Positions 12,001 to 42,023 of a DNA stretch of 64,000 nucleotides are shown piece by piece. The notes under the pieces were generated by a model that saw only the letters and a list, made by a program, of their open reading frames with translations, had not been told where the DNA came from and did no database searches. Origin of the DNA: an uncultured Clostridia bacterium (GTDB taxonomy: Bacteria > Bacillota > Clostridia > Christensenellales > UBA1242); assembly GCA_944372445.1 (NCBI GenBank), contig CALVZE010000001.1, positions 50,199-114,198 of the forward strand. Direction: 5' to 3'. Position numbers and translations under genes: made by a program. Each line of letters opens with the position of its first letter. The stretch's first letter is position 1.

Positions 12001-15000
12001 AGCATAAAGTGTGCCACCGCTGTCTTTCGTCCAAGTTCTTGAAGTTGCCGTGCCGTCAGCGTTAAAATATTGAAGTCCTTCTGTCTTGCTGTCAAAGAAG
12101 CCGGCAAACTTGTAGCCTGTGTGTGTTGGCAAGCTAGTGCTTGGGATGTTTTCAAATGGTTTGTCAAAGGTTGCTGTGACCTGTGTTTTGTTGCCAAGCG
12201 TTCCGCCATTAGCGTCCAATGTGACGGTGTATGTTTTAGCCTCCCATTGAGCGTAAAGGGTGTCGGACGCGTTGACTGAATATGGAGCTTGGTCAGCGTA
12301 ATCTGTTTCTGAACCACCCGCCTCAGTATTCCAGCCGTCAAAGTTATAGCCTGTCTTTGCAAAGCCATTAGCTCTAAGGTTAACACTTGCGCCATGAAGT
12401 TTATAGGTGCTTCCCATAGTGCCAGAGCCTGTATTTTGGTCATAAGATATAGTATATACCTCATATAGATATACATTTATAGTTAAAGTATTATCAGATA
12501 GTTCATCCACATCAGTAAACGCCTTGTCAAAGCTTATTTGATTACCACTTGCAGACAAATCGCTTGGATTATCAGAGAGAGACGTGTTGGAAATATAGTA
12601 GTTTGTTGGAGCGGTGAAGTTTAAGCTTAAAGTCTGTCCAAAAGCCACATTGGAAAGAGTGACAGAGCTTGTGCTGTTTGTTAAATCGCCACTGCCAAGA
12701 CTTGCTCCAACACTGCCTGTAACGGTGTAAGCGACAGAAACCGCGCTTGTGCTTGCACGATTGATATTCATATTTATTTTCACGCTATATGTTTTAGCCG
12801 TCCAGCGTGCGTATAGTGTGGTGTTTCCAACCTTGTCCCAAACTTTTGTGTTTGCACCGGTTTCGTCAAAATAGTGATTTCCACCTGTGGCGTCTTGGGT
12901 GTCATAGAAGCCGGCAAACTCATAGCCAGGGCGTTCAGGAATTTGCTCCGCTGTCAAAGCCGTCATGCTTGCACCATAAGTAACATTGTTTAACACCACT
13001 GTGGTGCCTGAGGCGAAGCTTCCGTTGTTAGCATTTAGCGTTACATCATATTTAAGTGGCGCCCAAATAGCATAAACGGTTATCTGAGAGTTATTTCCAG
13101 ACGCCGTCCATGTTCCTTTCACTGTTCCGTCAGCATTGATTACATAGTTTGTGCCGTCTGATGTTGTTGCCCAGCCTTGAAGAGTGTAACCAGCAAGTGT
13201 CGCTTTTGGCGTTCCACTTAAAGCGCTTGTGCCGTAATCAATTGTCAAAGTGTTTGAGGTGCCTGTTCCTGTTATACTTGGCGTTCCAATGAGCGCATGT
13301 CCCAAATTGTCCACCGTATTAGGAGAAAAGGTTATTTCAACATTGATTGGCGTCCATTTTGCATAAAGTACATCGTGGCTTGTTGTATACGTCAATCTAT
13401 TTTCAGCAAACACACCGCTGTCAAGTATAATTTGCATGCCACCGCTGTTGGTATCAGTATAGTAACCACCGAATGTATAGCCCGTTCTTGTTGGAACAGC
13501 AACACTTGCTATTGCTGATGTCGCTGCCTCATTCGAATACCAGCCCGTTTCATATTTCAAATATACAGTATTAATTGTGTTTGAACCTTGTTGATGATTA
13601 AGAGTAATAGTGTAAACTTCCGGAGTCCATTGAGCAAAAAGTGTAACCGAACCTTCGTTCACAGTTGTCATATTGCTCACGCTTTGCCCGTCACTATACG
13701 ATTGTCCTGAGCCGTTTCTTTCAGTGTTCCAACCTGTAAATTTATAACCTTTCAATTGATATTTATTTAGATTTAAGGTTTGAGGAGTGCCATATTTAAA
13801 TTCTTGATTTTCCATTGTTCCGGTCGCTCCGGTAGTCATATTATCGTCGTTATTGTCAAACACAACAGTAAAATTGTTGGCTTGCCACCTAGCTGTCAAT
13901 GTTACATTACCATACATATTGCTTATCTCTGCGCCCGAAGCATATGTAGAATTATGAGTCCAGTTTCCGTCCGCTGTTGTCACTTGCCAAAAAGCATCAG
14001 GGTCAGGATTATAACCTGTCTTTGACACTTCTGAGGCTAGGAGTAAATTGAATGTTTTATCATAATTATATGAATAAGTATTAGAAGAAGAGGATGTTCC
14101 TCCATTGAAGTTATATGTTAATGTATAAGGAATGACTTCCCACTCAGCATATAAAGACATAGAACTTGTCACTGAAATCTCTGTTGCAAATTCTCCACTA
14201 GGATAAACTTTCCAACCTTTTTGCCTATAACCTGGTCTTGTAAGAATATATTTGTTTGACAAATCTATTTTGCCGGTGTCAGGCATTTGCATTACAACCT
14301 TGCCTGTTTTGGCTTCTGGTTGTTGATGGTTGGCATATAAAGTTATGGTATGTCCGTCGAAGTTTTCAAGCACATAGTCTCTTGGATATGGATAAAGAGC
14401 GGTGCCTTGAAGAGTGCCATCAGCAGCATCCACTTCAATGGATGAAAACATCCAGCCTTCATTATTCTCTCCTAGCGTTTCTCCGGAGAAATTCCAATCA
14501 CCAGTCCAAAGAGTTGTCTCTTCTGTGCTTTCTAGATTGATAGGATAAGCGCTTTGTGCATAAAAACCAACGCGATATGCAAGACCAACATCAGCCCCCT
14601 CTTTTGGATCACCAAGCTGAATATTGCCCTCTATTATCTCCTCGTTGCCCTCTTTGTTATTCGGTCCATAACCCTTTATTCCGTTTGCAGTATCATAGTA
14701 GAATGATGCGTAGGAAGGCGTCGTCGCCGTCGGACAGTTAACCGCAGAACCATTGCTTGCAAAAAAGATAGAGTTGTTCGCAATCAAACTTGTAGGCGTT
14801 CCCGCATACATATTGATACCGCTTGTTGATGAACCGGTATAAACAAAAATTGAGTGATCGAGAAAAAGCGATACGCCTGCCAAATTATCAAAACCTGATG
14901 CGTCACTAAACTCAATTAACGTGTTTGTGATATGTAGTTCATCACCATTCGTGATACCTAAGGCACTCAAACTTGTGCTACCCATTTGAGAGGCGCCATC

Positions 15001-15201
15001 TTTGTAGTAATCGTTAGTGATGTAAATCACATTGCCGTCATCTGTTACTGCCGACATCGACACTTCGTCTTCGTCACTAACAGTTGCAGTGATTGTTGCT
15101 GGCTGAGCAACCAAAACATTCGCGCCAATGCCAAACATAGAAGCAAACACGCAAAGCCCCGCAACCAGCATAAGATTTAATTTCTTTTTAAACTTATCCA
15201 T
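1..15201 (-). CDS. Giant secreted/cell-surface repeat protein of Listeria-Bacteroides repeat (Flg_new / InlB B-repeat) type. The N-terminus is complete and the C-terminus lies beyond the window (>=5067 codons).
   Basis: Absent from the ORF track because no stop falls inside the window. Reverse-strand ATG at 15201-15199 follows AAGGAGA. Hand translation gives MDKFKKKLNLMLVAGLCVFASMFGIGANVLVAQP (signal peptide), then recurring GYxFxGW...LYAxW modules. The same codon phase at 1-69 decodes REGYTFLGWRVLADAGLNLDGS. No listed minus-strand ORF is in this phase, so it must be stop-free throughout. Confidence 0.85.
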   Translation of the reverse strand, partial: MDKFKKKLNLMLVAGLCVFASMFGIGANVLVAQPATITATVSDEDEVSMSAVTDDGNVIYITNDYYKDGASQMGSTSLSALGITNGDELHITNTLIEFSDASGFDNLAGVSLFLDHSIFVYTGSSTSGINMYAGTPTSLIANNSIFFASNGSAVNCPTATTPSYASFYYDTANGIKGYGPNNKEGNEEIIEGNIQLGDPKEGADVGLAYRVGFYAQSAYPINLESTEETTLWTGDWNFSGETLGENNEGWMFSSIEVDAADGTLQGTALYPYPRDYVLENFDGHTITLYANHQQPEAKTGKVVMQMPDTGKIDLSNKYILTRPGYRQKGWKVYPSGEFATEISVTSSMSLYAEWEVIPYTLTYNFNGGTSSSSNTYSYNYDKTFNLLLASEVSKTGYNPDPDAFWQVTTADGNWTHNSTYASGAEISNMYGNVTLTARWQANNFTVVFDNNDDNMTTGATGTMENQEFKYGTPQTLNLNKYQLKGYKFTGWNTERNGSGQSYSDGQSVSNMTTVNEGSVTLFAQWTPEVYTITLNHQQGSNTINTVYLKYETGWYSNEAATSAIASVAVPTRTGYTFGGYYTDTNSGGMQIILDSGVFAENRLTYTTSHDVLYAKWTPINVEITFSPNTVDNLGHALIGTPSITGTGTSNTLTIDYGTSALSGTPKATLAGYTLQGWATTSDGTNYVINADGTVKGTWTASGNNSQITVYAIWAPLKYDVTLNANNGSFASGTTVVLNNVTYGASMTALTAEQIPERPGYEFAGFYDTQDATGGNHYFDETGANTKVWDKVGNTTLYARWTAKTYSVKINMNINRASTSAVSVAYTVTGSVGASLGSGDLTNSTSSVTLSNVAFGQTLSLNFTAPTNYYISNTSLSDNPSDLSASGNQISFDKAFTDVDELSDNTLTINVYLYEVYTISYDQNTGSGTMGSTYKLHGASVNLRANGFAKTGYNFDGWNTEAGGSETDYADQAPYSVNASDTLYAQWEAKTYTVTLDANGGTLGNKTQVTATFDKPFENIPSTSLPTHTGYKFAGFFDSKTEGLQYFNADGTATSRTWTKDSGGTLYAHWTKESYNIIYVYNNGSTEQELGEPYAYDVTTTLILGENINLTGYEISGWKVKSTVGSWTANDIFDNGKNLTEQWGTVTLLAQAKPLLCEINLDTNLPESCNWTVVLDPANTTKIYAVYGTATLYANKTDNTTGSGSGAVKASLNGYNFLGWALDKSAVSADDCIIDANGNLKSPWTKVEATTLYAIWEHDSDGNVITYNFAGGSYNNSTNNLPYNYNVNAEFSLLAGDVVTRTGYTLTGFTASNSASGNWGTSTYTPGQTISAFTKYGAVTLTANWEAKEYVVTLNANGGELGATTTVTATYGEAMPIISEGLPTRTGYTFAGFYDKQTNGTKYYNNDGTSARNWDKAEDGVILYAYWTPNATTVTYNPNGGTMSGLNYATRLEDWSTTSHGVTIDYDAETNVFTLNGTYDTNDHDYNSVFVGFYDEDFTNLNLSAGSYTFGYNVISGDIANPGTVEETNTLTNVYGAFFLNKETDYGNSRTFGTSYIGNSAYENTINITQENLENSRALIMNYLPGEGNTMPTFNNYQIRFYLYYNAPMTTQVITHDENTYIPIAKREGYMFTGWNTEEDGSGKTYNAGNIGELTGGNVTLYAQWKAKRIPVTLNHNKGSASTTPERDYQTVYIDYGTKDVYDAWVGGNKIESLVPTKAGYTFNGWYYNTASNSYTGSNGVLTKNWDINYTSGNFPTLNASWTAKRIQVIQDAGEGEFSDGQKQKTVYIQFDSNKIYSASSGTTTASLEVPERNLYDFDGYYYDNENNIVVNYDGSKLTFSSWTIYDKTDDDNPVTINAKWSVHAYQIAFNANGGRFTTGSADQNELPMKVGENFTLHDAENLKREGYSFLGWAFEENETDPDSIYDAGMVVQSSEEADSLFSQIANHAVMYAIWKADPYTVTYSAGGVEGVTLPSPASFGYTFESTEVLSNNVSRVGYTFAGWKPTADVGPLSSGGYAWDMDTVYQANTSVLGKYGNVTLVAQWTNNTYTVTFNGNGASSGEMDPQEFTYDVTQALSLNEFKRNGYTFLGWARESGASTPTYTDGQEVENLSSSVNGQVELFAVWKANVYAVTLDTNYSPLINNGGSPTLSTPTTVYVVYDSNVIYSSRTGSSQSDYAVSNVVTPVVSNLTGYTFKGWALDGTLITNNLGSLTAVWNRYDASSYTLTAQYDPIEYNLTINFADFAGITALGAMNSTSLTVTRSDDAGYSQSLTYGNSIVITKDFDDDAITITLTRTGTENYYLALGSVPTSGGARNSISFTWTPNKNTSENAVVREIYDITLKVNDATSVEEKIHDQNETFSATPPNGYNFTGWVISDAGDYNGEIIAKGEPFTLNCDATLTAQFVAIEYDITYSFDESVYKEVEYNGESLAQSSVTIEEAYTIEDNLKLLGNETFKRYGYTITEWDFVSGVNQSEGWGSTIFGTGVTAGFGTGFFGDVTLKAIFSTVGYTITYEANGGTFTDASTDSYTIESGATLFGDADIERTGYTLVGWNYKAEGSDTENNWSVNNGTTVDYQKGENVSKKYGNITLVAEWDANDYTITYDANQGRFNTENDATQSYTYPNAISLKNSTNIIRDGYALVGYTISNDEGNWEENYPDGISFAQGETFTTEANLYGDVTLTAVWQALKTNYEVIVYIQTAEKGYTELGRYSDNETYLAGQTVDIEAVKNAIAGGKVNINGFKYRETNGYTTNLEGNALTVVGDGSLEIKIYYDYVVYTATVNAGDDGSFANGGANTATMYYNVYGRVDYANQVVTNQYEGFTLPSTTEIEKTGHTLSKFTVSTTEDLTRGSKWFASTTQLLPGTVISSDADSANNSDRLFGNVTLTAEWQVNTYTVQYNQNYGTGNAGVKGLNYAIREEDWSTTQSGVTIDYDAGTNVFTLDGTSTGDITLVDFAGTFEAGTYIGKYFVQSGSLIRQMGASSAVLTFAFGAVSEDVETVYNTSGTFTLELNETFEGTFSITFSQGYRFNNLEISLGFYKENDVVLEQNITYGEAQPLPYAERTGYHFVGWNTQADGQGTYYSYENIDTITTNDILYAQWEKNDYTIRFDASNNVMYHYILGGISGSLENFESSIVGNEEVVKVTFDSSNINTNITFASGANLIAGEEYVWTIDIKSTQAHNFEIGPLDGVIDYNYTTQGEWVTVTHRYTKKAENPSDFRIMGDWTVGEVFEFKNVSVQKVSDIEADHAIGSRTVRYNESYGTLPTPTKTGYTFNGWYLDEGLETPITSTSTVATAVNHTLYSKWTANTYYVRFNPNGAPYTSLMPNQQFTYDQEPTALSLNTYERPGYIFRGWATNETLNAETYEKRVKYKDGAEVKNLTSEPNGIFNLYAVWEPKTVTVTFNLNDVTDGTGSTEATFTIDALNTNAEMFVKFSEAFSELYITDENSIIGMPSARRAGYEFAGWFTNKTGGENVTESTVAENIVDSDSLAIVLYARWTANPYTVTYDGNGGTVNGDGSTTTVQGAGATFDVDYTYRPNDGTNETNFVKTGYTFAGWSLTPNGAIAYTAEQLGTEGYTTPFIHTSNITLYAVWTEHTYTLTFNSNDNRYPGSVSSVISGQSASVELDYTEEFTLRDIFNKPGYEFVGWVTEALKDTATADSFNTDVAGIADGMIKNDEIVSTLTAVDDGTYNLYAIWRSEPVSYTVNYMYQSVAAARAGTTNLETDFTRHSYTTTKEHAGTKIEVSTLSNTFISSNPALKATMHTSTTSNSDGSYVVAGDGNLVINIYFLRGTYDVTINIGAGIDTVTVLGNANSNITPTSNVYKVYYDETITLSATTKPGYTNPVFKDGEDIVSSMQINTNKTFTVSATPIVVNYNVEIYQQNVDDNNYTKLAEPSTSSGTTDTFVEFVKSTYGVTLNGTKFEYTGFSYNEDKTKEENGGNLANIKIEGDESTTVKLYFDRRSFNVTIVGDTGVESFTGNGSHIYGSTFDITVTEATGYEFVRWTVEGTKLGNFNENVMNQTGLIMGAGDVTLNIITQLETYTLTINANGGTYPSSTTITQDYGTTYKLQTPTRRGYTLADWTLSGDGDGSISGNTTDGFTFTFGVGDNTLTAVWSENSYNITFENVYNSFNVIVADKNGGNAKTVTIPANGTEGSHSYTINVKFTDIVVTTDNGVSTTPTGETYAELKGTNPTRTGYVFGSNEQVNAKWQNLIYLLKGVSEGAYRYSKYFDVSQTKTGWYSDSQQNTNTRAYAFTQLADETTVTISLNWLPMVSEITLSAEKEEGTSTNITATHEKVYANYDGSSLYGSIYEDGRIHEQVSGSAVYPTAERNGYEFLGWFTSEGVQVISASGRLLSNVSGYTNSNGGWASTNDITLYAHWTANRYEIELNVNTGTLDGDSIIDSSVWAEFDSQNLYVDQTSTTTVNPTASKVGYTFNGWTTTQNNLDTLFISAEGELLAPYTELAGDEVFAYFTVNDYEITLDLNAGGDSSATLVTGDVTVTDNKVYITYGTKNIYNSMDTSSRVIVAPKATRTGYDFIGWATSADATALSECVINASGQLINNSTFSEADTLYAVWRIGTFVITTDLTDAKIIDFSITGDATEQETDNTYRVNFGTEVRIAFNNMPGYSFTGFVTTPSGLVITPNEGGYEFTMPAYSFTLKLNSDNNLILVNLDANDDAGATKADALTYDKIYIGYNSKEIYAGRDENIWENIGGTITPTAHRDGYTFLGWSTNRNATTADECLINANGALNSDFTNATNDGAITLHAIWEKTSVSYSVEYYLQNVLGDEYTQDTSRTTPGTGAVDTNVTLSTYQIAIKGFAFGRYETNNTDTSSLNIRGDGQLVVKLYYTRNSYTLTIDKDNEEENIKVSGKYQSTYTLPTVTKTGYTFADWTKESGEGSVSGNTFTFGATDATVKANWTPKIIKVTLDKGEGDSVSISTIYAKYDSSTLYSDEAGNAPLTTMPTASKVGYDFDGFYLDETLVISKTGLVSTWKYADETTLTARFTAHTYTITYQDSYGNPTLSSDTYTILDEIELATSEREGYTFLGWRVLADAGLNLDGS

Positions 15202-15254
15202 TTCATTCTCCTTGTAACCGCGACCGCATACGCGACCTTCTATTACTTGAAAAT

Positions 15255-15284
15255 ATTATAATATATATGCGCAATTGTTGTCAA
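15255..15284 (-). promoter_or_regulatory. Candidate sigma-A promoter of the giant gene
   Basis: On the reverse strand, TTGACA (15284-15279), an 18-nt spacer, then TATAAT (15260-15255), about 50 nt upstream of the ATG. Confidence 0.4.
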
Positions 15285-32688: not shown

Positions 32689-32890
32689 TATAAATAGGTG
32701 CCATCGCTTGGTTTCTGAAATGTTTCTATTATAATTTTATATAAAACCTGTTAGGTTTAAAACTTTTGGATTGAATTCAGTCTTTTTCGACAAAATATTG
32801 TAATTATATCAAAAAACCGCTTGTAAATGTATTTTGAAATGGCATTCGCTATATGGTATAATATCTTTGTTTTGCTTAAAGGAGATAATT

Positions 32891-33283
32891 ATGAGCGAAG
32901 TGGAAAGATTGAAGGTTAGAAAGGTTATTAGATATGCGCTTTTGCGGATTGGTTTTAGAATGGACCAAACAGGCTTTCAATATCTTTCAAGTGCGATAGA
33001 GCTTGTGATTGTCGAGCCTATGCTTCTTCATAAAATGATGAACGGCTTATTCAAAGAAGTGTGCTGTTTGTATAATATTGAAAAGGTGGCAAGTGTGCAG
33101 GGAGCGATAAGAAATATGATAGACACAACTTTCAGCAATCATAGTTTTTTAGAGGTCAATAAAATGTTCAATACAAACATTTTTACTATCGATGATAAGC
33201 CGTCGTGTGGACAAATAATAGGACTTATTGCCGAATATTACAATCTTAGGCTATATAAAAGCGAAGAGTTTTTTCAGTTTTGA
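32891..33283 (+). CDS. Stand-alone Spo0A C-terminal (DNA-binding) domain-like protein, no receiver domain
   Basis: Residues align by eye with B. subtilis Spo0A 150-260 (IG...G.QYL..AI...LL...L...V...YN....V..AIR..I......KP.....I..IAEYYNLRL). The ATG at 32891 follows AAAGGAG. Confidence 0.7.
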   Translation: MSEVERLKVRKVIRYALLRIGFRMDQTGFQYLSSAIELVIVEPMLLHKMMNGLFKEVCCLYNIEKVASVQGAIRNMIDTTFSNHSFLEVNKMFNTNIFTIDDKPSCGQIIGLIAEYYNLRLYKSEEFFQF

Positions 33284-33500: not shown

Positions 33501-33872
33501 ATGATTAAATTTTTTAGATGTAGTCATTGCGGAAAGGTTATTGTTAAGGTGGTAGATTCAGATGTTCCGACAGTTTGTTGCGGTGAGGCGATGAAAGAAT
33601 TAGTTGCGAACACAACTGACGCTGTCACAGAAAAACATCTTCCTGTTGTAGAAAAAGGAAGATGCAAGACGACCGTGAAAATCGGAAGTGTTCCTCATCC
33701 AATGACGCCAGAGCATTACATAAACTTTATTGTCATGGCAAATGCTAACGGATATGAAATAAGATTTTTAAATCCAGGCGATAGCATAGAAGCAACTTTC
33801 AAAAATGATGACTATACCGAGGTGTATAGCTATTGCAATCTCCACGGTCTTTGGATGACTAAGCTCAAATAA
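33501..33872 (+). CDS. dfx: Desulfoferrodoxin (2Fe superoxide reductase)
   Basis: N-terminal desulforedoxin-like CSHCG...CCG and a C-terminal SOR centre (HPMTPEHYI...CNLHGLW). Confidence 0.92.
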   Translation: MIKFFRCSHCGKVIVKVVDSDVPTVCCGEAMKELVANTTDAVTEKHLPVVEKGRCKTTVKIGSVPHPMTPEHYINFIVMANANGYEIRFLNPGDSIEATFKNDDYTEVYSYCNLHGLWMTKLK

Positions 33873-34429: not shown

Positions 34430-34876
34430 TTATTCTATAACTTCTACCGTTCCGTCTTCTGAGATTTTTATTTTATCTCCTGTTTTAATCTCTGAAAGAA
34501 TATCACTCCCAAGTTTATCAATGGCGATAATATTAGAGTTTTCCCAATTTTTGGCTAAGATTACACCGCTTGCGGCAAGACTGTCTATCTCTTCGCTAAA
34601 TAGAAGAGCGGAAGGGTTTATCTTCATCTGACAAATCGTTTGAATGACAAGTCCACCGGTTGTCGAGCCGATGGTTTGAGGTAATATTAGTGCCACTCCC
34701 GTCAAATTTTTTCCATAGACATCAGGGTTGTTTTGGTCAGAGCCGATAACCTTTTTCTTGTTCATAAGTGCCGACTTTTGAAAGGTGGCAAGGGTGTTAA
34801 GTCCCTGACGCGACACCACACATTCTCCTTCATAATTTCCTTTGCAGATAACTCTGCCTTTAAATTTCTTTTCCAT
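34430..34876 (-). CDS. Aconitase X swivel-domain subunit (DUF126 family)
   Basis: 148 aa with the GRVICKGNYEGECVVS...GKNLTGVALILPQTIGSTTG pattern typical of DUF126. Adjacent to the DUF521 partner. Confidence 0.8.
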   Translation of the reverse strand: MEKKFKGRVICKGNYEGECVVSRQGLNTLATFQKSALMNKKKVIGSDQNNPDVYGKNLTGVALILPQTIGSTTGGLVIQTICQMKINPSALLFSEEIDSLAASGVILAKNWENSNIIAIDKLGSDILSEIKTGDKIKISEDGTVEVIE

Positions 34877-34877
34877 A

Positions 34878-36149
34878 TTATTTCACCTCGCAGATAATTT
34901 TTACGATGTCATCGTCTTTATAGTATCTAGCCTTTGAATAGGTCCTAAGTTTATTGCTGTTTGTAATTATCGGTTTACTGCCTGCTAGCGGATTGTTGGT
35001 ATACATAAGAGGACAGATAGAGGAAAGTTTTACGCCATAACCTATAAATTTTTTATAATCGTCGGTCTTTTTAAATTTTGCGGCAACATCTGGCGCGCAG
35101 GTCATGATTGTGCGAACTTTAACCTTTTTTCTTCCGCTCTTTTTAAGATTTTCTCCTATTTTTTCAGTCCAATTTTTGAGTTGGTTGAAAGAAAGGTGAG
35201 GACATCCGATAAAGCATAGTGACGGCTTGGCATCTTCCTTTTTCCACATGACAGGGTAGCTTTTGTATACTCTTTCAAGTTCCGCGTCATCGATTACATA
35301 GCGTATAGCATTTTCGCGCCAAAGTTTTTTGCCAAACTTTCTAGCTTCTGGCGTTAAATTGTCGATATGGTATAGTCCTACCGCACCATTTGAGGCGGTG
35401 GCGGCTCCGAAGTCTTTTAAGTATGAGATAGTGTCATCATTAAGCTCAGTGCCTAAAAATTTGTCTAAGCCGACAACATATGGCACTTTTTCCATGACTT
35501 TCATGCCGATAGCCGAGCCTAATATTTGTGCCTCAGGCAAATGTGTTGTTTTAATTTCCACTATGTAATCAGCTTTTCTTCCGTCATCGGTAAGTAAGCC
35601 AAACTTTGGCACTTTACCTAAGATTGCTCCAAAGATATCAAGCATTCCGCTGTTTCGGTTACATCTTGCTCCAAGCACGGAGTTGGCAAAGACAACTGCG
35701 GAGCTTTCTGCCCAAGAGAGAATATCGCCATACTTTGGAGTGTTTCCAACTTCTTCAAGATAGCAAGTGCAGGTGAAGGCGTTTTTGTTTTTTAGCCCAA
35801 TCTTTGAAAGTTGCTCCTCATAGTGTTTTTGTTTGGAATACATAATTTTTGAAAAGATAAGCTTGTCTAAAATACTACATTTGACATTTTTATAGTCAAT
35901 CGGGCGCGGGTCAACTGTGAATGGATACGGTGTTTTTAGTCCCGCTTCGATTATTTCATCCATAATTCGATAGACAGGTTTTAAAAGCCCGATACCGAAC
36001 GAAGTGACCAAATGCCCGCTTGTGGAAACAGGAACAAATTCTGTTGCCCCGAAAAGTTCGCCAAATTCAACAAGTGTTTGCATGATTTTGGCTTTTGTCT
36101 TTCCTTCGCTACCAGAAAGAATAGCCTGTTCTTCTTTTGTTAGTTTCAT
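34878..36149 (-). CDS. Aconitase X catalytic subunit (DUF521 family)
   Basis: N-terminus MKLTKEEQAILSGSEGKTKAKIMQTLVEFGELFGA is typical of DUF521/AcnX. There is a 1-nt gap to the small subunit. Confidence 0.8.
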   Translation of the reverse strand: MKLTKEEQAILSGSEGKTKAKIMQTLVEFGELFGATEFVPVSTSGHLVTSFGIGLLKPVYRIMDEIIEAGLKTPYPFTVDPRPIDYKNVKCSILDKLIFSKIMYSKQKHYEEQLSKIGLKNKNAFTCTCYLEEVGNTPKYGDILSWAESSAVVFANSVLGARCNRNSGMLDIFGAILGKVPKFGLLTDDGRKADYIVEIKTTHLPEAQILGSAIGMKVMEKVPYVVGLDKFLGTELNDDTISYLKDFGAATASNGAVGLYHIDNLTPEARKFGKKLWRENAIRYVIDDAELERVYKSYPVMWKKEDAKPSLCFIGCPHLSFNQLKNWTEKIGENLKKSGRKKVKVRTIMTCAPDVAAKFKKTDDYKKFIGYGVKLSSICPLMYTNNPLAGSKPIITNSNKLRTYSKARYYKDDDIVKIICEVK

Positions 36150-36326
36150 TTTAACCTCCTTTTAAACTTAGTTATATTATAGCAACAATTTAATTGAAAG
36201 CAAAATAAATTCTAATTAAAAAATAAATGAAAAAAGCTTATTATACAAAAAGTGTTCATGTGAAAAAAATATTTAAAAATTTTGTAATATCGTTTTGTAA
36301 ATTTAAAAAAATGTGCTACACTAATT

Positions 36327-37958
36327 TTGTTGTTATCAATGGGAAAAACAAAGGAGTTATTTGTGGAAGATAAAACTTGTTATGAGATGCTCAAAGAGAA
36401 TGCCGATATGAAGAAAGGCAATATCATCTTTAACGACCATAAAATCTCCATGAAACTCTTTTTGAAAAATATTGAAGATTTTGCCATTTCTCTCAAAAAG
36501 TTAGGGTTTAACAAAGGCGATGTGTTAACAATCTATCTTCCAACCTGCCCGCAAGCCCTTGTGGCTTTTTATGCCTGCTCGAAACTAGGAGTGATTGCAA
36601 ACATCGTGCATCCGCTTTTACCACTTGACCAATTGCGCGAAAATTTGAAGCAGACAAAATCGAAAGGTTTGATGTATTATGACATCTTGATAAGAAATCA
36701 TAAGGACTTAGCCTCTCTCAATCAAATTTTAATAAACTGTTCCATTTCAAATTATGTCATTTTAAGAAAGATTTTCTTTTTACTGTTTGCGATATACAAA
36801 TGCCGAACCTATAAAAAGGCGATAAAGTATTCAAAATTAATAAGGCATGGCAAAAATGTGACGCCGACAGAGGTGGAAGGAAAAGGTGGCGATGTTGTCT
36901 GCACCATGCATAGCGGAGGAACAAGCGGACAGCCAAAGATTATCGAACTTCAAAATAACGCGCTCAACGATTTAAGTGTGGCATTAGAAAAGATGTATAC
37001 CCGCAAAATTCGCGGAGGAGGGAGTGAATACTCGCTCGTTGCCTTGCCGATATTTCATGCTTACGGCTTAGGCGTTTCTGTGCATACCTGTTTGACTAAC
37101 AAATATAGTTTAATTTTGGTTCCAAACTTCAAACCGAAAAAATTTAATGCGATTATAAAAAAATACAATGTCACTTTCTTTGCAGGTGTCCCCGTTATGT
37201 TCAAGAAGATGATTGAATACAAAAACTTTTACGGCAAACATCTTGCAAAGCTAAAAGACCTGTGGTGTGGTGGAGATGTTCTCACCGAGCCGTTCGTTGA
37301 ACATTTTGATATGATATTAAAAAAATACAAAAGTTCGGCACGACTTTTTAGAGGCTATGGACTAACCGAAGTTTCCAGCGTGTGCGCGGCAAACACTTTT
37401 GAGCATTATCGCCCGTATAGCTGTGGCAAAGCCATTCCTTACACCAAAATTGAGATTTGGGATGAAGAAAACAACCTTTTATCTCCAAACACGATAGGTG
37501 AAATTGCCATAGGCTCGCCGTCAGTTATGAGAGGTTATCTAAATGAGGTTAACGGCTTTGTCCACAAAGAGGGAATAAAATGGGTAAAGACGGGCGATAT
37601 GGGCTACATGGACGAAGACGGCTACCTTTACATATTAGATAGGCGCAAGCGTTCCATAAAGATTAACGCTATAAATGTCTTTCCTTCTGAAATTGAAAAT
37701 TTGGTTAAAAAAATTGATTACATAGATGAGGCGTGTGCAGTGCCATATCACTATAACGAAAAGACCTATATCAAACTTTACATAACCATGAAAGAAAAAG
37801 AATATTTGGAAGAGAAAATAAAGCGAGAAATTATTACGCTTTGCAAGAAAAATTTGATAAAATATTCCGTTCCGCGTGTTATTGAGATAGTTGAAGAAAT
37901 GCCACGAACTAAGTTCGGAAAAATAGATTTTAAAAAATTAGAATTGGAGAATAATTAA
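36327..37958 (+). CDS. AMP-dependent synthetase/ligase (acyl-CoA or acyl-adenylate forming enzyme)
   Basis: AMP-binding motif TMHSGGTSGQPKI, then GYGLTE and TGDMGYMDEDGYLYILDRRKRSIKI. The likely true start is the GTG at 36363 after AAAGGAG. Confidence 0.88.
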   Translation: MLLSMGKTKELFVEDKTCYEMLKENADMKKGNIIFNDHKISMKLFLKNIEDFAISLKKLGFNKGDVLTIYLPTCPQALVAFYACSKLGVIANIVHPLLPLDQLRENLKQTKSKGLMYYDILIRNHKDLASLNQILINCSISNYVILRKIFFLLFAIYKCRTYKKAIKYSKLIRHGKNVTPTEVEGKGGDVVCTMHSGGTSGQPKIIELQNNALNDLSVALEKMYTRKIRGGGSEYSLVALPIFHAYGLGVSVHTCLTNKYSLILVPNFKPKKFNAIIKKYNVTFFAGVPVMFKKMIEYKNFYGKHLAKLKDLWCGGDVLTEPFVEHFDMILKKYKSSARLFRGYGLTEVSSVCAANTFEHYRPYSCGKAIPYTKIEIWDEENNLLSPNTIGEIAIGSPSVMRGYLNEVNGFVHKEGIKWVKTGDMGYMDEDGYLYILDRRKRSIKINAINVFPSEIENLVKKIDYIDEACAVPYHYNEKTYIKLYITMKEKEYLEEKIKREIITLCKKNLIKYSVPRVIEIVEEMPRTKFGKIDFKKLELENN

Positions 37959-39236
37959 ATGGAAAAAGTTGAAGAAGCAATAATTAAAAACGATAGGATG
38001 TTACCTATTGACGATACTGATGCGAAAGAAAGTAAGCGTATTAAAAGCATAGACAGATTCCGCGGATTTTGTGTCTTTTGTATGCTAATCTTTCAATTTT
38101 TAAAAAACTTTCCTAGTCTCGGAATTTTGTCTAGGCTTGCTGACCATTCGCTGTCAAAAGGCATAATCATCTTGCCGGGCATGACACTTGCAGACATAAT
38201 TGCACCAGCATTTATCTTTGCAATCGGCTTAACCTTCACGCTGTCTTTCACTAAGTGGCAAAGGTTATATGGCACAAAACATGCCATTATTCACTACTTA
38301 GAGCGTGCGCTCTCCATTGTTGGACTTGGCACTTTTCTTGATTTATGCAACAAGGTCCTTGACAGTATGAGCGGTTACACCTTAAATGCGTTTGACTACA
38401 CAGTGCTTGCCTTCACTATTGTGGCAATTATCGGCTTGGTTTTAAGACTGCTTGCACTCATCCCTGCGTGGAAGAAAAAATTGTCAGTGCCAGCAGAACA
38501 CATCTTCTATGTGGCACTTTCTTGCATGGGCATTATGAACATCATAATAACCACCATTGACTTCTTTGCCATTCAAAACAATTTCAGTGCGTTTAGATAT
38601 GACTATTGGGTGACCTTGCAAGGAATTGGATTTGCTATTTTAGTTGCCTTTCCGTTTGTTAAATCTAAATGGTGGGTTAAACTTATCGGAGCGTCTGCAA
38701 TTTTTGTTGCCTTCACTGTTTTCCACCAATTAGGCAACAATAAGGCATGGCTTGATGTTATTGTGCATGGCGGAACGATAGGTGGCTTCGGTTGGGGTGC
38801 AATGTTAATCTTTGATATGATGATAGCCGATTTCTATTTTATGAAGAAAAGGCATATTTCACTTGCACTTTCTGCCATATTCTGCACGCTAGGCGTTTTC
38901 TTGACGCAGTGGCTTGGAGTGATAAATCTTGGCAGTTGTTCGCCAACGTTTATCTTAGTAAGCGTTGGGCTAAGTGGATTAATCTTCTTCATCTTTGATT
39001 ATCTTGATAAATACATAACGTGGAAATTTGAATTTCTCGTTTGGTGGGGCAAAAATCCTATCATCATGTTCTTAGTGGAATTCTTCGTCATCGGTGTTTA
39101 CACCACGGTCATGCCAGAAAGCGCCTTATCGGGTGCAAGTTGGTGGCTCGCGGGAATTCAAGGAATTTTGGCAATAGTGCTGTTGACAGCATTTGCATAT
39201 CTTCTTGCAAGGAAGAAAAAATCAATTAGTTTATAA
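37959..39236 (+). CDS. Polytopic membrane protein, HGSNAT/DUF1624/DUF5009-like (putative transmembrane acyltransferase), paralog 1
   Basis: N-terminal KRIKSIDRFRGFCVFCM motif, then LPGMTLADIIAPAFIFAIG, and about 10 TM segments. The ATG abuts the ligase stop. Confidence 0.7.
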   Translation: MEKVEEAIIKNDRMLPIDDTDAKESKRIKSIDRFRGFCVFCMLIFQFLKNFPSLGILSRLADHSLSKGIIILPGMTLADIIAPAFIFAIGLTFTLSFTKWQRLYGTKHAIIHYLERALSIVGLGTFLDLCNKVLDSMSGYTLNAFDYTVLAFTIVAIIGLVLRLLALIPAWKKKLSVPAEHIFYVALSCMGIMNIIITTIDFFAIQNNFSAFRYDYWVTLQGIGFAILVAFPFVKSKWWVKLIGASAIFVAFTVFHQLGNNKAWLDVIVHGGTIGGFGWGAMLIFDMMIADFYFMKKRHISLALSAIFCTLGVFLTQWLGVINLGSCSPTFILVSVGLSGLIFFIFDYLDKYITWKFEFLVWWGKNPIIMFLVEFFVIGVYTTVMPESALSGASWWLAGIQGILAIVLLTAFAYLLARKKKSISL

Positions 39237-39247
39237 AGGAGGAAAAA

Positions 39248-40549
39248 ATGAAAAAAGAAAAAAGTGATGTAATTATCGAAGAAGTTTTAAAAGACGAGAA
39301 ACTAGAATATCGTGCAAAAACTGACGAAACATCAGAGAAAGGCGAAAGACTATTATCTATCGACAGATTTAGAGGACTTTGTATGTTCTTAATGGTATGC
39401 TCTTTCATTCTTCCAATTTTCTCTTGTTTCAACTTTTTAGCACCGATTATTGAGCATGGTGCGGATGGCTTCCAAGTTTTGCCAGGAGTTTCGTTCGCGG
39501 ACTTGTTTGCGGCTATGTTCATCTTTGTTATAGGGCTGACAATCTGTAAAAGTTTCAAATCGCGTGAAAGAAAGTATGGCACGCGTAGAGCTTATTGGCA
39601 ACTTGCCATAAAATTTTTGGCACTTATAGGCATAGGTATTTTAATTAACGGCTTTGAAAATGGCTGGGTCGATGTTTTTACAGGAGCTAAAAAGTTTACT
39701 GAGCTTTCCATTAAAATTCAAATCTTTGCGGTAATGTTTTGGATTGCCTTTGCTCTTTTAATCGTCTTTTTAATCAGTCTTGCTGTTAAAAATGAAAAGT
39801 TTAAAAAGGTTTCAATATCAATGCTTCGCTACTTCCTTGCAATAGCAGGCGTTTTAGCACTTTATTTCATCTTAGTAAACACCGCAGAGAAAATCACAGT
39901 GCCAACAGACGGAGAGCGTTTTGGTGGTTGGGAATGGGACACTCTTCAAAACATAGGACTTGCAGGACTTATGGCACTTCCATTCGTTAAGTTTGACAAA
40001 TGGGGCAGATTGATTATGGTGTCAATCACCTTTGTTGTTATGACAGTATTGATGCAAAACGGACTTTTCCCTCTTGCAAATAAGATTTTGGAAGGAGGTA
40101 TATTTGGTGGTTTCAGCTGGGCAGGTATACTTCTTTTAGGTTCAGTTTTTGCCGAACTTAAAGACGACAAGCGCTATTGGATCATGTCCTCACTTATGCT
40201 TCTAATCTCCGTAGTTTTAATTGTTGCCTTTGGCTTTACCGCAGCAAAAAGAGGATGCACACCAGTTTACGCTCTCTTCTGCGCAAGCATATCTTCTATG
40301 ATTTGGGGCGGACTCAACTTCTTAAACAATTGGAAGCCTAAGTTCAGCTTCTTCGCAATTTGGGGAAGCAATGCCATTTTGACATATATACTGACCTTGG
40401 TGATAAGCATGCTTTTCGGCGGACTTTTAGAGACGCAGATGGCATCACTACATCCAGCCGCAGCGGTGGTTATCGTGCTTGCAATTTTAGGACTATTTAC
40501 CTTGATGAATTGGTATCTTAGAAAGAAAAATCGCTTTGTTAGAATTTAA
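39248..40549 (+). CDS. Polytopic membrane protein, HGSNAT/DUF1624/DUF5009-like, paralog 2
   Basis: ERLLSIDRFRGLCMFLM and LPGVSFADLFAAMFIFVIG, the same architecture as the upstream gene. RBS is AGGAGG. Confidence 0.7.
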   Translation: MKKEKSDVIIEEVLKDEKLEYRAKTDETSEKGERLLSIDRFRGLCMFLMVCSFILPIFSCFNFLAPIIEHGADGFQVLPGVSFADLFAAMFIFVIGLTICKSFKSRERKYGTRRAYWQLAIKFLALIGIGILINGFENGWVDVFTGAKKFTELSIKIQIFAVMFWIAFALLIVFLISLAVKNEKFKKVSISMLRYFLAIAGVLALYFILVNTAEKITVPTDGERFGGWEWDTLQNIGLAGLMALPFVKFDKWGRLIMVSITFVVMTVLMQNGLFPLANKILEGGIFGGFSWAGILLLGSVFAELKDDKRYWIMSSLMLLISVVLIVAFGFTAAKRGCTPVYALFCASISSMIWGGLNFLNNWKPKFSFFAIWGSNAILTYILTLVISMLFGGLLETQMASLHPAAAVVIVLAILGLFTLMNWYLRKKNRFVRI

Positions 40550-40630
40550 CTTGCTTGCAAAAAGAAGATATTTAAGTAAAATTTCTCGACTTAGGTCGGG
40601 ATTTTTTATCGAGAACAAGGCGAATTTTGC

Positions 40631-40665
40631 GGTCCTTCGACCAAGCATTGCTTGGTCGAAGGACC
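40631..40665. terminator. Perfect 17-bp-arm palindrome (operon terminator and member of the TCCTTCGAC repeat family)
   Basis: GGTCCTTCGACCAAGCA-t-TGCTTGGTCGAAGGACC. Confidence 0.6.
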
Positions 40666-40757
40666 TAAGAGAGTGCAGCGTGTCTTTATGAGATTCTTCG
40701 AGAAACTTTGCGAATATTTAGGCGCTTACTTGGTAAAACTAAAAATTGGAGGTATAT

Positions 40758-42023
40758 ATGAAATTTAATCCGTTTTTAGAAAAGCCAAAGAGTTTGGAAA
40801 GCTCGTTGATGGACTTTAAAAAGCTTTCCGGCAAGCCTTATAACAAGCTTGAAAGTAGTCCATACACGCGTGTGCGTTGCATACTCATGAACGGCACTGA
40901 GTATGAAGCGGTGTGGTTTTCACATCATTTTCATAGACACATAGATGACAATGACTTAAAGCGCTCGCTAGCCCTTGTTAGGCGCAATGAACAGCAACAG
41001 CAAAAGTTAATTTCTTCGTTAAAACCTATCGATGAAAATCTGCTTGAAACAACAATCGGCTATGAACAACTTGCGGTCGATTTGACGGCGTTTTTAGCAC
41101 AGCATGTGAAAGACAAGAATGTTAAAAGTGCGCTTGACTTTGCACTATTAGAGGACTTCGACCACCTTTATCGATATGCAAATATGCTTGAAAGTGATAT
41201 GGGCTGTCATGCTGAGGACTATGTTGGTGACTACACAGAAATCATGCCGGCACGTCCAACAATTGCTCATCACAGGCACCCGTATGACAGCGTAAAAAAT
41301 CATATCTGCAATAAAACTGCGGATCCGTTCGACAAGTGCGCTGTGAACATCATCACCGCTGCCGAGCAACAGACGATGAACTACTATATGAACCTAGGCG
41401 CGTTTTATAAAAATCAAAAAGGCAGGGAACTATATACTGAAATCGCCATGGTGGAAGAACAACATGTTACGCATTATGGTTCTCTTATCGACCCGTCGGC
41501 ATCGTGGTTTGAAATGTGCTTGATGCATGAATATATCGAGTGCTATCTCTACTACTCCATGCTCTGCGACGAAAGCGACGAGGGCGTGAAAAAGGTGTGG
41601 GAGATGTTGCTTGAACAGGAGATAGCACATCTTCACAGCGCCGTCAAAAATTTAAGAAAATATGAAAAGAAAGAGTGGCAAGAGGTCATTCCAAACGGCG
41701 AATTTCCAGAGCTCATTTCCTTTAAGTCGAATAAGAACTATATTAGGAACATCTTAAAAGACACCGTCTATAACACCGCAGAGCGCGAAGGCTATATAAA
41801 CATCAACGACCTATCTGAGGACGCCGACTTTTTCAAGTATCAAAGAAAAGTGATAAAAAAAGACAAAGATATGGCGTCGCATAAAGTGATTTTAGAACAT
41901 ATAGATAGATACGGCGAGGACTACCGCGTGGAAGATAAAGAAAATCCGATAAAGCCTCTTCAAGATAGAATGACCGACAACACCGAAATCGGAAGAGTTA
42001 AGTTTCATCCACAAGACAAGTAA
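40758..42023 (+). CDS. Ferritin-like / rubrerythrin-like diiron-motif protein, about 420 aa, function unknown
   Basis: Paired motifs GYEQLAVD...LEDFDH and AAEQQT...EEQHVTHY...EQEIAHLH. The ATG at 40758 follows GGAGG. Confidence 0.6.
   Translation: MKFNPFLEKPKSLESSLMDFKKLSGKPYNKLESSPYTRVRCILMNGTEYEAVWFSHHFHRHIDDNDLKRSLALVRRNEQQQQKLISSLKPIDENLLETTIGYEQLAVDLTAFLAQHVKDKNVKSALDFALLEDFDHLYRYANMLESDMGCHAEDYVGDYTEIMPARPTIAHHRHPYDSVKNHICNKTADPFDKCAVNIITAAEQQTMNYYMNLGAFYKNQKGRELYTEIAMVEEQHVTHYGSLIDPSASWFEMCLMHEYIECYLYYSMLCDESDEGVKKVWEMLLEQEIAHLHSAVKNLRKYEKKEWQEVIPNGEFPELISFKSNKNYIRNILKDTVYNTAEREGYININDLSEDADFFKYQRKVIKKDKDMASHKVILEHIDRYGEDYRVEDKENPIKPLQDRMTDNTEIGRVKFHPQDK

Follow-up and report, generated by a model that had tools for sequence, protein, structure and literature searches.

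What reaction would call for an acid-activating enzyme to be encoded in direct contact with two related polytopic membrane proteins? The question is posed by a three-gene locus in a 64,000-nucleotide stretch of DNA from an uncultured Clostridia bacterium (hereafter, the window). On its forward strand, the locus encodes a class I adenylate-forming (ANL) ligase of 531 amino acids, related to FadD and to 4-coumarate-CoA ligase (4CL) and containing PF00501 and PF13193 (36363-37958), followed by two membrane proteins, here termed MP1 (425 amino acids; 37959-39236) and MP2 (433 amino acids; 39248-40549). Its Pfam match (PF07786) and predicted fold place MP1 among the transmembrane acyltransferases (TmATs) of the type of human HGSNAT (in full, heparan-alpha-glucosaminide N-acetyltransferase), and BLASTP and hhalign indicate that MP2 is a diverged paralogue of MP1. 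The original prediction had proposed that the trio acylates an extracytoplasmic glycan or wall polymer by analogy with DltA and DltB, and that a divergent pair of aconitase-X (AcnX) genes handles the acyl substrate. Our follow-up analysis leaves an extracytoplasmic acylation role as the best reading. On the combined evidence of sequence and predicted structure, we consider the operon to be probably, though by no means certainly, a two-step transmembrane acylation system, which makes an acyl-coenzyme A (acyl-CoA) and transfers its acyl group across the membrane.

Conservation of the ligase-MP1-MP2 module

The locus was compared with its relatives by tblastn and by analysis and clustering of open reading frames (ORFs) over 54 loci. 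The ligase and MP1 genes are adjacent and co-directional in 36 loci, nearly all from distinct species-level genomes, at identities that extend from a relative with 100% identity in MP1 (tblastn; locus L007) down to ~52%. MP2 follows in 28 of the 36. The distance between the ligase stop and the MP1 start is short throughout (median 12 nt, range -13 to 56). In the window, the ligase stop abuts the MP1 start codon in the sequence TAAATG at 37956-37961, and AGGAGG lies within the 11-nt gap preceding MP2. Both junctions, like the five genes and the palindrome with 17-nt arms that the original prediction had described, were found in the sequence. The divergence of the proteins is correlated, with a rho of 0.86 between ligase and MP1 and of 0.91 between MP1 and MP2. 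The original prediction would have been refuted had the trio not been conserved as neighbours in related genomes; it is conserved in these 36 loci and, in addition, in Malacoplasma iowae.

Clustering of neighbouring ORFs over 50+ loci, in which glycosyltransferase, SGNH, carrier-protein and transporter genes were sought, revealed nothing else conserved beside the trio. Its flanks are otherwise unrelated housekeeping genes, such as YchF, FtsH and FBA. The plasmid and phage collections gave no tblastn match to the module, and thus no sign of carriage by mobile elements. Five species have ligase and MP1 without MP2 (L020, L027-29, L054), a metagenome-assembled genome of Borkfalkia has MP1 and MP2 without a nearby ligase (L036), and one genome has a solo MP1-like gene (L004). 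These variants suggest that MP1 and MP2 are probably not obligate partners.

The control elements of the locus point to a self-contained unit. The ligase ORF extends at most over 36327-37958, with alternative in-frame starts at TTG 36327 and ATG 36339. The most likely start is GTG 36363: AAAGGAG lies before it, and further upstream the sequence contains an extended -10 promoter element (TGcTACACT; 36314-36322, forward strand). Many orthologous loci, whose upstream genes differ, have this succession of TGnTAnAnT, AAGGAG and start codon in front of the ligase at the same distance. Because the element recurs before GTG 36363 in loci whose upstream genes are unrelated, the ligase would have 531 residues and the module would have its own promoter, which implies a leader of ~33 nt; no Rfam match to a riboswitch or other leader RNA was found in this leader. 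The control region shared with the AcnX genes had been given as 177 bp. This length is correct for the intergenic distance from the AcnX large subunit to TTG 36327, and becomes ~213 bp when measured from the likelier GTG 36363. At the other end, a 7-bp stem (TCTCGAC/GTCGGGA) followed by the T-run TTTTTTAT at 40584-40609 on the forward strand, recognised by terminator scan and RNA folding, is the probable intrinsic terminator of the operon. With conservation, promoter and terminator taken together, the trio appears to be a unit, a single operon.

MP1 and MP2 as predicted transmembrane acyltransferases

MP1 matches PF07786 (HGSNAT_cat; Pfam clan CL0316) over residues 27-185 with 29.5 bits, above the cut-off of 22. 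When a profile of the MP1 family was compared with the PDB, human HGSNAT was the sole match, on the signature motifs. The AlphaFold2 model of MP1 is of good quality (predicted local distance difference test, pLDDT, 82; predicted template modelling score, pTM, 0.83) and contains the core TmAT fold of 10 transmembrane helices (TMHs). In a Foldseek search of the PDB with this model, ranks 1-11 were HGSNAT (probability 1.00, TM-score ~0.5) and rank 12 was GWT1; matches past rank 12 had probabilities below 0.35 and are noise, a level at which all transporter folds were found. Assignment of the membrane proteins to an unrelated transporter family, which would have overturned the original prediction, is therefore not what was found: the fold search with MP1 returned the acyltransferases HGSNAT and GWT1. 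By Pfam, PDB sequence search and predicted fold, MP1 is identified as an HGSNAT/TmAT-type transmembrane acyltransferase. An exhaustive profile search of 1.84 billion sequences showed the MP1 family to be small: 872 representatives reached E <= 1e-3, and 77 reached E <= 1e-30. In the common DUF5009-type relatives (~320 amino acids), the two-helix insert formed by MP1 residues ~134-218 is missing.

MP2 aligns with MP1 in BLASTP at 29% identity (E 2e-40) and in hhalign over 393 columns (probability 100%, E 2.9e-52), which identifies it by sequence comparison as a full-length paralogue. The two proteins share the motifs SIDRFRG and PG..AD...FIF.IG. Their paralogy, and these motifs, had been proposed from the outset and were borne out by BLASTP, hhalign and the alignments. 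The nearest that MP2 orthologues come to a Pfam family is Acyl_transf_3, which six of nine match below threshold (best E 0.002).

The TmAT superfamily is characterised by a 10-TMH fold in which a DxxR motif in TMH1, FxxxxG in TMH2, an Arg in TMH3, a Gly in TMH6 and a Tyr in TMH9 line the acyl-CoA pore (PMC12423673). In HGSNAT, His297 and Asp307 form the catalytic dyad, Asn286 is the oxyanion residue, and R275 and R345 bind the CoA diphosphate (PMC11199644). We established residue equivalences from a HMMER alignment to HGSNAT and from conservation over 39 MP1 and 30 MP2 orthologues. The TMH1 motif, D272 and R275 in HGSNAT, aligns directly with D32 and R35 of MP1 and D39 and R42 of MP2, which are 93-100% conserved; M282 corresponds to M42 and M49, respectively. 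The TMH2 motif F313..G318 aligns with the invariant F85..G90 of MP1 and F91..G96 of MP2. The TMH3 residue R345 aligns directly with R116, which is invariant in MP1, and with position 122 of MP2, an Arg in 97% of orthologues and a Lys (K122) in the window copy. The dyad Asp, D307, aligns directly with D79 of MP1 and D85 of MP2, both invariant. All of these positions are invariant or nearly so in both paralogues. The complete sets comprise D32, R35, M42, Q46, H63, D79, F85, G90 and R116 as invariant residues of MP1, and D39, R42, H70, D85, F91, G96, R/K122 and Y380 as conserved residues of MP2.

The outer loop between TMH1 and TMH2 contains one invariant His in each paralogue, H63 in MP1 and H70 in MP2. 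From their position in the loop, these residues are likely equivalents of the catalytic H297; the loop differs in length from that of HGSNAT and HMMER left it unaligned. According to sequence and model, segments rich in Lys and Arg lie at the DxxR and R116 ends, and H63 and D79 lie at the opposite end of TMH1 and TMH2.

At other active-site positions the paralogues depart from HGSNAT and from each other. The position of HGSNAT Asn286, 11 residues past the TMH1 Arg, is an invariant Gln46 in MP1 and Phe53 in MP2. Near HGSNAT E499, which together with R372 binds glucosamine (GlcN), MP1 has H270 and MP2 has E282. In low-scoring regions of the alignment to HGSNAT, the TMH9 (S)xxxY motif falls at P367/F371 of MP1, with Phe in place of the Tyr, and at A376/Y380 of MP2, and the TMH6 Gly falls at D286 of MP1 and G298 of MP2. 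The two proteins thus appear to differ in a complementary way at the active site (Q46/F371/H270 against F53/Y380/E282). Given the substitutions at the Asn286 position and in the E499 region, we file MP1 and MP2 as HGSNAT-type TmATs, and not as orthologues of HGSNAT or NagX.

Two further clades of MP-like proteins occur among the loci. A sister clade of MP1-like TmATs (31-36% identity) is found in Acutalibacteraceae and other Clostridia (L044, L045, L050, L051, L055/L056; ~6100-11300). Its genes are always directly preceded by a gene of the YdjC family, whose members resemble carbohydrate deacetylases, and in L055 the TmAT gene lies near GH116 and ulvan-lyase-like genes; this clade seems to represent a different, glycan-linked TmAT pairing. 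In a third clade (L059, 7001-8983), a TmAT of 402 amino acids (P0074) and, next after it, a membrane-anchored SGNH/GDSL protein of 245 amino acids are encoded separately, a pair that we read as a split AT3-SGNH architecture built on an HGSNAT-type TmAT. SGNH proteins are the usual extracytoplasmic partners of TmATs. The SGNH pairing of the third clade and the YdjC pairing of the sister clade support the reading of the family as extracytoplasmic acyltransferases.

The ligase resembles CoA ligases

Both Pfam domains of the ligase score above threshold (PF00501, 192 bits; PF13193, 38 bits), and its translation contains the ANL core motifs HSGGTSGQPK (A3), GYGLTE (A5), TGDMG (A7), DRRKR (A8) and PRTKFGKI (A10). 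Its top NCBIfam matches are long-chain-fatty-acid-CoA ligase models, which it matches end-to-end over ~530-575 positions, an indication of architecture only. The top PDB matches are 4CL, luciferases, oxalate-CoA ligase, MenE and FadD13; no DltA-type chain occurs among the 48 matches at E <= 1e-20. Taken together, the sequence comparisons describe a generic ANL enzyme of the CoA-ligase type with FadD-like architecture.

Outside the module, the nearest relatives of the ligase are standalone genes annotated "acyl-CoA ligase", located between a phosphoribosyltransferase gene and trkA/trkH. An attempt to read the substrate from the neighbourhoods of these relatives was abandoned because the standalone setting is uninformative. 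Residues ~126-144 of the ligase form a strongly hydrophobic segment of 19 residues, YVILRKIFFLLFAIYKCRT, in a FadD-like insert between motifs A2 and A3. By associating with the membrane, this segment could dock the ligase close to MP1 and MP2.

A native copy of the module in a wall-less bacterium

Malacoplasma iowae encodes all three proteins, with identities of 58% for MP1, 46% for MP2 and 52% for the ligase. The gene order is MP1-MP2-ligase, unlike that in the window. The genes contain in-frame TGA-Trp codons (6 in MP1, 11 in MP2 and 3 in the ligase) and have native GC content. These codons, together with the GC content, argue that the trio consists of long-resident, expressed genes of a cell that has no wall. 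Peptidoglycan and teichoic acid are therefore probably not the common acceptor, and the teichoic-acid or cell-wall polymer target of the original prediction is disfavoured. MP2 of M. iowae (L002, 9300-10925) and of an uncultured Mycoplasma has an N-terminal, low-complexity extension of ~100 amino acids rich in K, E, N and S, which is absent from the clostridial proteins.

A two-step model for transmembrane acylation

In the mechanism that we propose, the cytoplasmic FadD/4CL-like ligase would activate a free carboxylic acid with ATP and join it to CoA, as its family suggests. MP1 and MP2 would then, judging from fold and conserved residues, bind the acyl-CoA on the cytoplasmic side through the TMH1 DxxR, the TMH2 FxxxxG and the TMH3 Arg, and the acyl-CoA would be threaded through their central pore. 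At the outer mouth, the His-Asp dyad would pass the acyl group to a hydroxyl or amine on an acceptor beyond the membrane. Neither a carrier protein nor a separate flippase would be needed. HGSNAT has been shown to pass its acyl group in this way (PMC11199644), and the TmAT superfamily is inferred to do the same (PMC12423673).

The acid that is activated is most likely a fatty acid or another non-acetyl acid, because acetyl-CoA needs no dedicated ligase; a dedicated, translationally coupled ligase suggests that the CoA ester of the donor is not available to the cell from another source. A fatty acyl group is our leading guess, in view of the FadD-like architecture and of GWT1 as the second fold match. 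As the active sites of MP1 and MP2 differ in detail, and as some genomes contain MP1 but lack MP2, the two proteins most likely divide their work between two acceptors, or two positions, and do not form an obligate heterodimer. Probable candidates for the acceptor are a glycolipid or lipoglycan of the membrane, a glycoconjugate that is secreted or at the surface, and a small molecule outside the cell.

Several observations weigh against this interpretation. The catalytic His has been equated by its place in the loop and not by direct alignment. The oxyanion Asn is replaced by Gln in MP1 and by Phe in MP2, while the N286Q substitution strongly reduces the activity of HGSNAT (PMC11199644), and MP1 has a Phe where the TMH9 Tyr is expected. 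MP2 has no Pfam match above threshold, PF07786 included, and its AlphaFold2 model is poor (pLDDT 55) and unfit for a fold search, for which reason profile-profile comparison was used instead. The ligase reaches no substrate-defined NCBIfam equivalog (FadD, MenE, 4CL, Acs and others): all of its 105 matches lie below cut-off, the best being NF004837 with 250.6 bits where 476 are required. The family of the ligase thus gives no acyl donor. Outside the module, the genes most closely related to the ligase are housekeeping genes that stand alone, which may point to an ordinary ligase substrate. Across the 54 loci, clustering of neighbouring ORFs found no glycosyltransferase, lipid or polysaccharide gene conserved near the trio. 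Finally, TfMurT, a distant member of the family, has been proposed to be a transporter (PMC9007349).

Comparison with known systems and alternative explanations

Human HGSNAT is the closest characterised relative of MP1, as the top match in both fold and sequence searches. It has in common with MP1 the DxxR, FxxxxG and TMH3 Arg signatures and the aligned catalytic Asp, and each paralogue has an invariant His in the outer loop that holds the catalytic His of HGSNAT. The mechanism implied is that of HGSNAT, in which acyl-CoA enters from the cytosol and is threaded to an active site across the membrane (PMC11199644). However, identity is only 14-16%; the luminal domain and TM1 of HGSNAT are missing from MP1 and MP2, which in turn carry the two-helix insert. 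They also differ from it in being tandem paralogues coupled to a dedicated ligase, with a donor that is probably not acetyl-CoA. The AT3-SGNH proteins (OatA, OafA/OafB) and IcaC/OpgC likewise belong to the TmAT superfamily and take in acyl-CoA to put out an acylated glycan (PMC12423673). In contrast to AT3-SGNH systems, the trio has no SGNH domain or gene, and the catalytic His of AT3 TMH1 (DxxRx10H) is Gln in MP1 and Phe in MP2; known AT3-SGNH targets such as peptidoglycan and lipopolysaccharide are absent from M. iowae.

GWT1/PIG-W, the inositol acyltransferase of glycosylphosphatidylinositol (GPI) synthesis (PDB 8xik), is the sole fold match of MP1 other than HGSNAT. This TmAT takes palmitoyl-CoA as donor for the acylation of a membrane glycolipid at the non-cytosolic side. 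GWT1 would be the best functional analogy should the product of the ligase be a fatty acyl-CoA, although it is eukaryotic, has no detectable sequence similarity to MP1 and has no dedicated ligase. GWT1 also lacks the DxxR motif (PMC12423673). A more specific form of our model follows this analogy: the dedicated ligase would supply fatty acyl-CoA in hosts whose fatty acids are otherwise handled as acyl-phosphate or acyl-acyl carrier protein, and the two TmATs would acylate two sites on an outer-face glycolipid, lipoglycan or glycoconjugate. We put this forward tentatively, as a possibility with a distinctly smaller chance of being right than of being wrong.

Three other explanations differ in what they take the membrane proteins, the donor or the acceptor to be. 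In vectorial uptake, MP1 and MP2 would act as permeases that admit a carboxylate (for example, an exogenous fatty acid), and the ligase would trap it inside the cell as its CoA thioester in the manner of FadL/FadD or FATP, a service to lipid auxotrophs with small genomes. Translational coupling of a ligase to membrane proteins is how vectorial acylation is classically laid out, and the hosts include a mycoplasma as well as uncultured gut Clostridia; mycoplasmas typically depend on external lipids. The proposal that TfMurT, in the wider family, is a transporter (PMC9007349) counts in the same direction. We nevertheless think uptake unlikely, for the MP1 fold matches acyltransferases (HGSNAT, GWT1) only, with transporter folds at the level of noise, and the CoA-diphosphate residues and the likely His/Asp dyad are invariant in both paralogues, which would not be expected of a permease. 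HGSNAT itself does not transport its own substrate (PMC11199644). The module could alternatively serve salvage in the manner of NagX, N-acylating an external amino sugar or amine for import and catabolism with acetyl-, propionyl- or butyryl-CoA that the ligase makes from gut acids. NagX and its DUF5009/DUF1624 relatives share the Pfam family and clan of MP1, and genetic evidence on a bacterial HGSNAT homologue exists for NagX only: it is proposed from fitness data to be a transmembrane N-acetyltransferase of periplasmic glucosamine, and in one species (Echinicola) an acetyl-CoA synthetase (Acs) is co-required with it (PMC9007349). The glycan-catabolic setting of the sister clade linked to YdjC deacetylase and GH116, and an acetate kinase gene two genes downstream of the trio in M. 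iowae, also speak for salvage. Yet NagX proteins have 309-395 amino acids and lie in chitin/N-acetylglucosamine operons with NagA, NagP and NagK, whereas MP1 and MP2 have ~430, are physically coupled to a ligase and have no linked catabolic genes. The two-helix insert and the active-site substitutions of MP1 and MP2 are absent from NagX/DUF5009-type proteins, and no sugar transporter, kinase or deacetylase is conserved beside the trio over the 54 loci. The ligase, FadD-like and of ~530 amino acids, is not of the Acs type, and fermenters already possess acetyl-CoA. On this balance, salvage strikes us as quite improbable.

The last alternative is the model from which this analysis started, Dlt-like esterification of a wall polymer with AcnX handling the acyl substrate. 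The DltABCD system of D-alanylation likewise pairs an adenylating enzyme with a polytopic acyltransferase in the membrane, the latter acting on an extracytoplasmic polymer. The organism of the window is walled, with an Amidase_3/PG_binding_1 gene nearby, and the AcnX genes share the divergent control region there. The analogy breaks down in the components. DltA loads the carrier protein DltC and not CoA, while the ligase resembles CoA ligases, and ORF clustering found no DltC- or DltD-like gene in any of 50+ loci. DltB is an MBOAT protein, with a fold different from that of TmATs (PMC12423673). The original prediction had itself remarked that no carrier-protein gene lies beside the trio; this holds, and is to be expected because TmAT enzymes take acyl-CoA directly. 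With the trio native to wall-less M. iowae, and with AcnX adjacency gone at <=90% identity, the Dlt-like model is largely refuted by synteny and we give it hardly any credence. The two-step transfer of an acyl group from CoA to an outside acceptor remains our preferred interpretation of the module.

Genomic surroundings of the module

The region lies directly downstream of dnaN-rnpA-yidD-yidC. Divergent from the module, and outside it, the reverse strand encodes the AcnX large subunit (DUF521; 34878-36149; PF04412, 318 bits) and small, or swivel, subunit (DUF126; 34430-34876; PF01989, 40 bits). Both domains score above threshold and mark the pair as a split type II AcnX, and with them the family assignments originally made for all five products stand (PF00501 and PF13193; PF07786, in MP1 only; MP2 as its paralogue; PF04412; PF01989). 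The closest solved structure to the large subunit is Thermococcus type-II AcnX (7cnr, E 4e-42, against E 1e-18 for cis-3-hydroxy-L-proline dehydratase). The NCBIfam equivalog for the latter enzyme is not reached (154 bits against 700), and PRK03955, the NCBIfam model for the small subunit, is below cut-off. AcnX adjoins the ligase in only four loci, all with at least 95% MP1 identity (L005, L006, L007, L021); by tblastn and ORF clustering, it is absent beside the trio at 90% identity (L009) and in every other of the 54 loci. The proposal that AcnX supplies or processes the acyl substrate is therefore unsupported. We rejected AcnX as a part of the module on this limited synteny and regard the pair as a probable unrelated neighbour.

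Downstream of the terminator lies the perfect palindrome at which the original prediction had ended the operon (GGTCCTTCGACCAAGCA T TGCTTGGTCGAAGGACC; 17-nt arms; 40631-40665). The palindrome is present, but the canonical terminator at 40584-40609 precedes it. It occurs once in the window, where 0.02 matches are expected by chance, and is exactly conserved in the nearest relatives only (L005/L006/L007). It has no T-run, and we discarded the possibilities that it is a terminator or a member of a repeat family. Placed between the module terminator and the next gene, this 35-nt sequence could be a protein-binding site or an RNA-stability element. The next gene, an ORF of ~421-425 amino acids at 40746-42023 on the forward strand, is kept only in relatives of at least 89% identity, and its protein gave no Pfam, NCBIfam, PADLOC or PDB match. 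PADLOC gave no matches that would suggest a defence system.

Between yidC and the AcnX genes are genes for a stand-alone Spo0A_C-domain protein of 149 amino acids without a receiver domain (32834-33283, forward strand) and for desulfoferrodoxin (33501-33872, forward strand). In the close relative L005 their equivalents are on the opposite strand, indicating a local inversion. Further away, the apparent lack of ORFs in the first 15 kb of the window led us to examine alternative genetic codes, which were rejected: the segment is occupied by a single ORF of at least 5,084 codons on the reverse strand (1-15255), which runs off the left end of the window and encodes a giant protein with Listeria-Bacteroides repeat (Flg_new) domains. 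The gap had appeared because the ORF list omits frames that extend past the window. Its GC content is 0.42, against ~0.33 nearby.

Implications

HGSNAT-type and AT3-type TmATs shape cell-surface glycans, with consequences for lysozyme and phage resistance, serotype and lysosomal disease. To our knowledge, the general pool of acetyl-CoA serves nearly all members characterised so far. Where a module carries its own acyl-CoA ligase, this implies an acyl group that is not otherwise made as a CoA thioester. A literature search found no paper on a module of ligase and HGSNAT-like proteins or on the M. iowae locus. Nor did it turn up a description of tandem TmAT paralogues whose active sites have changed in a complementary way, or of a mycoplasma that has such a system. 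The component families are known and their chemistry is predictable; what seems to be new is the conserved combination of a ligase with HGSNAT-type TmATs.

How much this adds to the biology of the family depends on donor and acceptor. If the donor were acetyl or the acceptor a nutrient, the module would be a modest extension of NagX biology. The complementary active-site substitutions of the paralogues would be a natural experiment on donor and acceptor specificity in TmATs. M. iowae, a cultivable and genetically tractable wall-less poultry pathogen, offers a clean system for finding the acceptor. If the surface-lipidation version of the model were true, the module would be a bacterial counterpart of inositol acylation by GWT1/PIG-W, present in walled gut Clostridia and in a wall-less mycoplasma alike. 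Should its product prove to be an acylated glycolipid or a glycoconjugate of the surface, the module would constitute a new route of surface modification in abundant uncultured gut Clostridia and in a poultry pathogen.

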